Source: Eledone cirrhosa
Taxonomy: Eukaryota
Length of the DNA stretch: 64,000 nt
Direction: 5' to 3'
Assembly (NCBI GenBank): GCA_964016885.1
Contig: OZ024765.1
Coordinates: 9,300,001-9,364,000 of the forward strand
Numbering within the stretch: position 1 is the first letter of the stretch; every line of letters starts with the position of its first letter. The notes under the pieces are model-generated. The model saw nothing but the letters and a program-made list of their open reading frames with translations, made no database searches and was not told where the DNA came from. Shown here one piece after another: positions 49,961 through 61,483 of the stretch. The translations under genes and the position numbers were made by a program.

Positions 49961-49996
49961 TCTTCTGATGAAGGACTAGTGTCCGAAGCGTTAAGA
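49961..49996 (+). ncRNA. Minimal HHR, family L (A15.1G); degenerate relative at 56509-56541 (-)
   Basis: UCUU-CUGAUGA-A-GGAC(UAGU)GUCC-GAAG-CG-UU-AAGA. Confidence 0.65.
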
Positions 49997-60988: not shown

Positions 60989-60992
<4 letters not shown>

Positions 60993-61201
60993 CCCGGATT
61001 TAATCGGGGGTAACCACAGTAAATACTCAATTTGTTAGTAGAGTGTAAACGTCATGTTTAATATAGAAATGGCTTCTACAGGACTAAAACTGTTTTATTT
61101 AAAAGAAATCATCAGGAAAGCCAACCGTTTTGTAAGGACAGTTGGCTTTCCTGGTGATTTCTTTTGAATGAAACAGTTCTAGTCCTGTAGAAGCCATTTC
61201 T
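60989..61201. mobile_element. PLE family E hairpin insertion; both HHR cores mutated
   Basis: Inverted arms 61066-61125 and 61142-61201; G12A on the - copy, A6G on the + copy. Confidence 0.8.
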
Positions 61202-61219: not shown

Positions 61220-61316
<97 letters not shown>

Positions 61317-61393
61317 GCTGCCGATCGATGTTCTGTTTTAAGCACCGAAACATCTATGATTCGTAGTAAACAGCTGATGAAGGGTTACTTTTC
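61317..61393 (+). ncRNA. Strand-permuted HHR-like motif, family P
   Basis: GCUG-CC-GAUC-GAUGU-U-CUGUUU-linker-GAA-ACAUC-UAU-GAUU-CG-UAGU-AAACAG-CUGAUGA-AGG. Confidence 0.55.
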
Positions 61394-61483
61394 TTCTCTT
61401 GTTCACGTCCCTATTACCATCTTACACTCTTTGTTTACAGTAACCACACAGCCTGCCTCATATATATATATATATATATATAT

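Follow-up and report, generated by a model that had tools for sequence, protein, structure and literature searches.

The question raised by this locus is whether several short helices at positions 61317-61393 of the window (the whole stretch of 64,000 nt of Eledone cirrhosa DNA analysed here) form a hammerhead ribozyme with an unusual order of its parts, and what kind of element carries it. In our reading, to which we assign a probability of about 0.7, this is a type-SGC motif that likely self-cleaves after U61332; the element around it is a repeat of non-coding tandem units, present here as a truncated copy, which a Penelope-like retroelement (PLE) likely copies in trans and which likely took its ribozyme from the 3′ end of a Naiad.

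Eckert et al. (2023) split the hammerhead into blocks S, G and C, with types I-III reading CGS, GSC and SCG and with SGC, CSG and GCS as the non-circular orders (PMC10085705). In our motif the blocks run 5′ to 3′ as cleavage site (S), GAAA (G) and CUGAUGA (C), and the permutation described in the earlier note already has a name, the type-SGC non-circular hammerhead. Helix III is formed by five Watson-Crick pairs between GAUGU (61327-31) and ACAUC (61350-54), helix I by six pairs between CUGUUU (61333-38) and AAACAG (61368-73), and U61332 stays unpaired within a GUU triplet. These helices, the unpaired U, GAAA and CUGAUGA were all found where the earlier note had placed them. The outer helix, drawn there as GCUG-CC-GAUC / GAUU-CG-UAGU, is also present, and proved to be one pair longer and interrupted by a single C.C mismatch (GCUGC 61317-21 with GUAGU 61363-67, then GAUC 61323-26 with GAUU 61358-61). 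By analogy with the RNAs of PMC10085705, the cut likely falls after U61332; in the sister copy of family A it is predicted after A21761. Features of the locus and of the sister copy are collected in Table 1.

Table 1. Features of the SGC motif, its host copy and the sister copy (positions of the window)
Feature	Position	Strand	Details and basis
Outer helix, 5′ strand (extends helix III)	61317..61326	+	pairings; compensatory changes
Block S	61327..61338	+	helix III strand 61327-31, U16.1 = 61331; helix I strand 61333-38
Short linker and block G	61339..61354	+	helix II strand 61341-46; GAAA 61347-50; helix III partner 61350-54
UAU bulge and outer helix, 3′ strand	61355..61367	+	pairings, covariation, folding
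Block C	61368..61386	+	helix I partner 61368-73; CUGAUGA 61374-80; extra A 61381; helix II partner 61382-86
5′-truncated family-B copy (unit about 750 nt): ribozyme and 3′ tail	61315..61459	+	blastn extent against full copies, 83-90% identity
(AT)n run at 3′ end, likely insertion target	61460..61483	.	window sequence; family statistics
(TA)n and (GA)n run at truncated 5′ end	61220..61313	.	window sequence
Sister copy, family A (unit about 630-760 nt)	21693..21882	+	SGC order; AUA triplet; GAAA 21778-81; CUGAUGA 21805-11

A scanner for all six block orders, which requires at least 5 bp in each of helices I and III, found two SGC matches in the 64-kb window, namely the present copy and that at 21747; in 30 dinucleotide-shuffled versions of it there was no SGC match and one GCS match. 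Rfam gave no hammerhead match in 61290-61480, and its scan of the whole window was dominated by microsatellite miRNA-like matches. A conventional hammerhead, in which CUGAUGA would be served by a downstream helix II-GAAA partner and which the earlier note had set against its own reading, was rejected, since such a partner is absent within 110 nt in 53/53 family-B copies (3/208 of all copies have one by a loose criterion).

Like the published type-SGC ribozymes (HRIMA-1 motif and variants in the accessible text of PMC10085705), the motif combines the S-G-C order with all conserved core letters (CUGANGA, GAAA and the NUH triplet), three mutually crossing helices and a short linker that joins helix I with helix II. 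In all families position 17 and GAAA are 14-16 nt apart, a distance made up of 6-7 nt of helix I and 5-7 nt of helix II strand, and the short linker of about 3 nt that marks type-SGC occurs in every one of them. Published SGC examples, so far as that text goes, come only from metatranscriptomes, where they stand beside hairpin ribozymes, and none from the genome of a known organism. In contrast, the present motif is animal genomic DNA with more than 1000 copies, its helix II is minimal, no I-II interaction helix is evident, and helix III is prolonged by a covarying outer helix as far as the point where helix I begins. In our searches of the open-access literature we found neither type, SGC or CSG, reported from a genome or a PLE. 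It is a variant of a known ribozyme in a new setting, an animal genome with retrozyme-like repeats.

The exact core pattern has 1115 matches in the 3.0-Gb genome versus 7 for its reversed control, and this count is a lower bound because the pattern misses families C, D and E. The window copy at 61315 retrieves at least 46 family-B matches (40 of 1372 candidates scored), and the 21747 copy retrieves family-A matches at 98-100% identity (40 of 2313 candidates scored). Altogether six families (A, A3, B, C, D and E) have different helix sequences and the same pairing; A3, C, D and E come from the core-pattern list and from scanning of genomic loci. For D and E the first copies were picked up with a scanner in which helices I and III are obligatory, and E comprises two copies only. 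Among 208 collected copies, 14 without a recognisable S block were set aside. The core is intact in 176 of the remaining 194, and 172 also have helices I and III, in a set whose collecting pattern favours intact cores and whose A3 bin is mixed. Triplets follow the families, with AUA in A, AUC in C and E, and GUC in D and most of B (GUC 25/46, GUU 12/46). The span from GAAA to CUGA is 27 nt in 169/194 copies and 28 nt in the other 25/194. Compared with the commonest family-B letters, the window copy shows five differences, all of them unpaired or kept as G.U.

Families A, A3 and C are homologous, and B and D have common flanks. The present copy has the permuted order in common with the 21747 copy but is no diverged form of that element; the two belong to separate families, whose units share only (TC)n by blastn. 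Metagenome loci that match the core pattern by primary sequence were put to a structure test: a cleavage block lying upstream and closing both helix I and helix III was present in 0/80, versus 22/30 pattern-picked matches in the Eledone cirrhosa genome. A pattern demanding a pyrimidine before CUGA gave 7 matches, of which 6 belong to variants of family A or B. In contigs of four sequencing runs, family A stands at high depth in one sequenced sample, which is possibly the source sample and so not independent, and at a depth of only 2-24 in two other organisms; these depths carry no weight in the argument.

Covariation was read from a sequence-only alignment of 15 copies that we picked to represent the families. 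Pairing reaches 97.4% in helix I, where 6/6 pairs show double changes, and 94.7% in helix III, where 3/5 do; the two parts of the outer helix are 88.3% and 60.0% paired, as against 33-40% in controls with slid partners. The family alignment and the covariation agree with a permuted hammerhead whose helices have been substituted, as the earlier note proposed, and we regard a real, covarying type-SGC structure as almost certain. Helix II is less regular. Its proposed register, AGC(A)CC/GGGUU with an extra A, GG pairing with CC and 61344 bulged, was retained over the register lacking the extra nucleotide, which scored lower and was rejected (42.9% vs 58.7% paired); the helix itself is weakly supported, with compensation at 1/5 pairs. 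Its core-proximal pair (C-G or U.G), which follows one extra nucleotide behind CUGANGA, is kept in 14/15 copies, and the G at 61382 is invariant (15/15). In families A and C, helix II may amount to a single G.U pair. Both AUA triplets and an additional A between A9 and G10.1 have natural precedents, and in a natural viroid hammerhead an extra A at that place slows cleavage moderately, according to the available parts of PMC1636495 and PMC3705267.

We consider it probable that the motif is self-cleaving; RNAs with the SGC block order do so in vitro at 0.007-0.19 per min (PMC10085705, accessible text). The tested SGC-3 ribozyme of the same text requires its stem I-II interaction helix. For the window copy, the candidate for such a helix reaches only -0.4 kcal/mol and overlaps the outer helix. 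Nested folding predicts helix III with a probability of 0.84, but prefers a loop occupied by other pairs to the open state by 4.6 kcal/mol. We propose that helix III and the outer helix would form first as one hairpin, with the S and G strands presented as a loop, and that block C would then dock via helix I and a minimal helix II consisting of one to two core-proximal pairs after the extra nucleotide and a loose distal part. The outer helix, which ends where helix I begins, would keep the 27-28 nt span and may act as a brace that replaces the stem I-II contact of other hammerheads.

The ribozyme is carried by units of 673 (A), 632 (A3), 527 (C) and 749 nt (B, measured at locus L014). They are 67-74% pyrimidine, their longest ATG frame is 64-136 codons (four units), and their predicted circular fold is 33-47% paired. 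No tRNA was found in 6 unit-bearing loci. Like the non-LTR retrozymes of animals (Cervera and de la Peña 2020, accessible part of PMC7229834), these are non-coding tandem units with one hammerhead each, and they further resemble them in a GC content under 50%, in dispersal as monomers to multimers and in co-occurrence with PLEs (PMC7229834 and the available text of the Li et al. 2026 preprint, 10.64898/2026.07.22.740005). Unlike retrozymes, the units are pyrimidine-rich and sparsely paired when folded as circles, and at 527-750 nt they exceed the 170-400 nt given for retrozymes (51-972 nt in the preprint 10.64898/2026.07.22.740005). Moreover, these sources define non-LTR retrozymes by a type I hammerhead, and because the order here is SGC we file the units as retrozyme-like and not as members of that class.

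In 173/204 classified copies the core is followed within 260 nt by the start of a (TA)n run, versus 27% at random places (A 58/74, A3 11/16, C 34/34, B 44/53, D 26/27). The distance from predicted cut to (TA)n is 100-119 nt in 47/58 copies of A, 110-119 nt in 31/34 of C, 130-149 nt in 27/44 of B and 140-159 nt in 24/26 of D. Inverted 5′ copies occur at 9/40 family-B and 11/49 family-A loci, some of which overlap, and locus L097 holds six SGC cores in tandem. Such traits (5′ truncation, partial tandems, inverted 5′ copies and a microsatellite target) are described for PLEs in the accessible text of PMC8557442, where Naiad elements in particular share (TA)n targets and all the others with our units, and internal initiation of reverse transcription has been demonstrated for a PLE (PMC11167929, available part). 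We hold PLE-type mobilisation of the units to be very probable. As to the steps, a tandem transcript would be cut once per unit to give unit-length RNA, which may circularise; a PLE reverse transcriptase/endonuclease would nick a (TA)n target, and copying would start inside the unit, at an AT-rich site that follows the cut by 100-150 nt, and run through the ribozyme, sometimes round more than one unit. Run-through copying from a fixed internal start would thus produce partial tandems with fixed 3′ and variable 5′ ends. Both family-E copies (L102:6450-6536 and L238:1167-1253) have a G-rich/C-rich outer helix, and each adjoins another SGC-family copy within one (TA)n tract.

The earlier note expected a parent element with RT and GIY-YIG. 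This expectation was not borne out: the units are non-coding, no RT or GIY-YIG ORF of an autonomous PLE and no PLE motif lie inside them, and among the loci examined no PLE ORF was seen attached to a unit. All GIY-YIG matches examined were C-terminal, together with RT and a cysteine linker, an arrangement that we label Neptune-type by domain order alone. Young intact elements of this type are abundant in the genome, some with intact ORFs of 938 and 1096 codons; loci L167 and L169, with intact-looking RT plus GIY-YIG ORFs of these lengths, are helper candidates. In the 900 nt after 7 such ORFs there is no SGC motif, and a type I core in 2/7. Naiads, on the other hand, are present as decayed remnants only, with 111 protein matches mostly interrupted by stops. 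A first Naiad motif search of the genome gave 1 match and a second 10 versus 6 in the control, no recognisable ribozyme was found in 20 stretches downstream of Naiad remnants, and a short motif built after the ribozyme of the published octopus Naiad had 0 matches. At L178:2900-5100 a decayed Naiad-like remnant with many stops has a short stretch in its 3′ region that faintly resembles a helix I strand. Since Naiads are decayed and without a recognisable ribozyme in the stretches examined, while family-A copies are 98-100% alike, the present helper is probably not a Naiad of this assembly; the probable copier of the young families is another PLE, or else a Naiad that the assembly lacks.

The source of the ribozyme is a separate matter. 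Craig et al. (2021) stated that Naiads lack canonical hammerheads and marked some as 'HHR_core' or 'HHR_half_core' without structure, as given in the accessible text of PMC8557442. Its File S5 contains 54 Naiad consensus records, and their unsplit CUGANGA passages, which offer limited context, were read by eye. Complete permuted hammerheads, SGC or CSG, appear in this way near the 3′ end of 15/54 records. SGC is seen in Naiad_Amil, _Aacu, _Anas, _Obim and _Ovul and in four records of uncertain name, two in part 12, one in part 19 and one in part 25 (probably _Esco); CSG is seen in Naiad-1, -2 and -3_Nbra, in _Hcon and in two unnamed records in parts 13 and 16. By the same kind of reading, two octopus records have the 27-nt span of the Eledone families plus an outer helix. 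In the record of part 25 the triplet is GUU and helix I comes close to that of family B; in the CSG records one sees the linker of 2-5 nt and the I-II interaction helix that Eckert et al. described. In the bivalve records of parts 20-23 no permuted hammerhead passage was seen by eye. Unlike Naiads, the units here are without ORF and have no link to a Naiad ORF in the Eledone cirrhosa genome. On these likenesses, read by eye, we lean towards a Naiad origin of the ribozyme. With little better than even confidence, we suggest a broader picture, in which SGC and CSG would be the standard ribozyme of much of the Naiad clade (corals, nematodes, arthropods, cephalopods), which would resolve the reported absence of hammerheads; SGC would here have outlived its Naiad host and would drive six or more families of retrozyme-like circles, whose copying would now be done by a different PLE clade, with the outer-helix brace as a new core stabilisation.

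Several other explanations must be weighed. Chance pairing within an amplified repeat would gain something from the fact that repeat copies are not independent; however, compensatory changes between families at 6/6 helix I pairs, together with the shuffle, slid-partner and metagenome controls, make it practically negligible, and they uphold the argument of the earlier note that three helices which change while pairing stays speak against chance. It is quite unlikely that the fold is real and not, or only weakly, catalytic, serving as an RNA handle for a helper PLE protein with uncleaved read-through RNA as template. A weak helix II, the want of an evident I-II interaction helix, competing nested folds and insertions that run through the cut site all fit such a handle, and so does the report that cleavage of a Poseidon PLE needed protein and was dispensable for insertion in vitro; in that PLE, the one tested, no RNA-seq ends were found at the hammerhead cut (both in the available part of PMC11167929). 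Nevertheless, the catalytic core letters and a NUH triplet (GUC, GUU, AUA or AUC) are kept across six families despite turnover of helices and flanks, which speaks against this reading. Cleavage might instead require a dimer or a partner in trans, with block C of another unit or molecule completing the S-G hairpin, and this we judge improbable. Minimal PLE hammerheads do cleave as dimers, units are found in tandem and inverted pairs, and a rigid outer helix that ends directly at helix I may strain the monomer. Yet a trans arrangement would not need a GAAA-CUGA span fixed at 27-28 nt across families, and monomeric SGC RNAs cleave in cis (PMC10085705, accessible text).

The Naiad origin has its own competitor, in which the ribozyme would be a rearranged canonical type I hammerhead of a Neptune-type PLE of the Eledone cirrhosa genome and the units its derivatives. 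Young intact RT plus C-terminal GIY-YIG elements are abundant, canonical hammerheads here also have CUGANGA followed by A-G-G as well as AUA triplets, and within the genome there is no Naiad link. The 3′ ends of the 7 ORFs examined point the other way, being without SGC within 900 nt and in two cases with a type I core, and in the available records of File S5 (PMC8557442) SGC can be read by eye in Naiads from corals, arthropods and cephalopods. We therefore consider this competitor unlikely, though worth keeping in view, and retain a Naiad 3′ end as the source of the ribozyme.

With these observations, non-circular RNA permutations are no longer confined to unassigned environmental RNA but extend to animal genomes, and the SGC copies provide natural compensatory variants, more than 1000 in number, for biochemistry and structure work. 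SGC and CSG ribozymes in Naiads may answer the stated puzzle of elements that 'lack canonical HHR' and of unexplained 'half-cores' (PMC8557442, accessible text). It is also implied that searches for retrozymes and PLE ribozymes restricted to type I miss a whole class. In a tandem-repeat setting, SGC, CSG and GCS interconvert as circular permutations of one another, and this bears on the evolution of such permutations. At L030:1590-1700, a 78-nt internal duplication of a family-B ribozyme gives overlapping SGC, GCS and CSG orders; it is a natural route between the three non-circular orders.

The window also carries seven canonical type I hammerheads (1926+, 1849-, 8055+, 21246-, 45381-, 49495- and 49622+), with AUA triplets and 5-8 bp of helix I, in PLE-like 3′ fragments. 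Type I hammerheads in the pseudo-LTRs of canonical PLEs (Neptune, Penelope/Poseidon and Hydra) likewise lie near the 3′ end of the mobile unit, whereas the SGC motif differs from their C-G-S order and hairpin-closed helices II and III. Minimal type I-like cores at 49965+, 56538-, 19020+ and 42863- have CUGANGA followed by A-G-G, as in SGC block C, and this likeness hints that block C has relatives among canonical PLE hammerheads. Finally, an inverted-repeat fragment at 60990-61200, whose minus strand has a hammerhead core at 61115, is inserted in the same microsatellite tract as the SGC motif.
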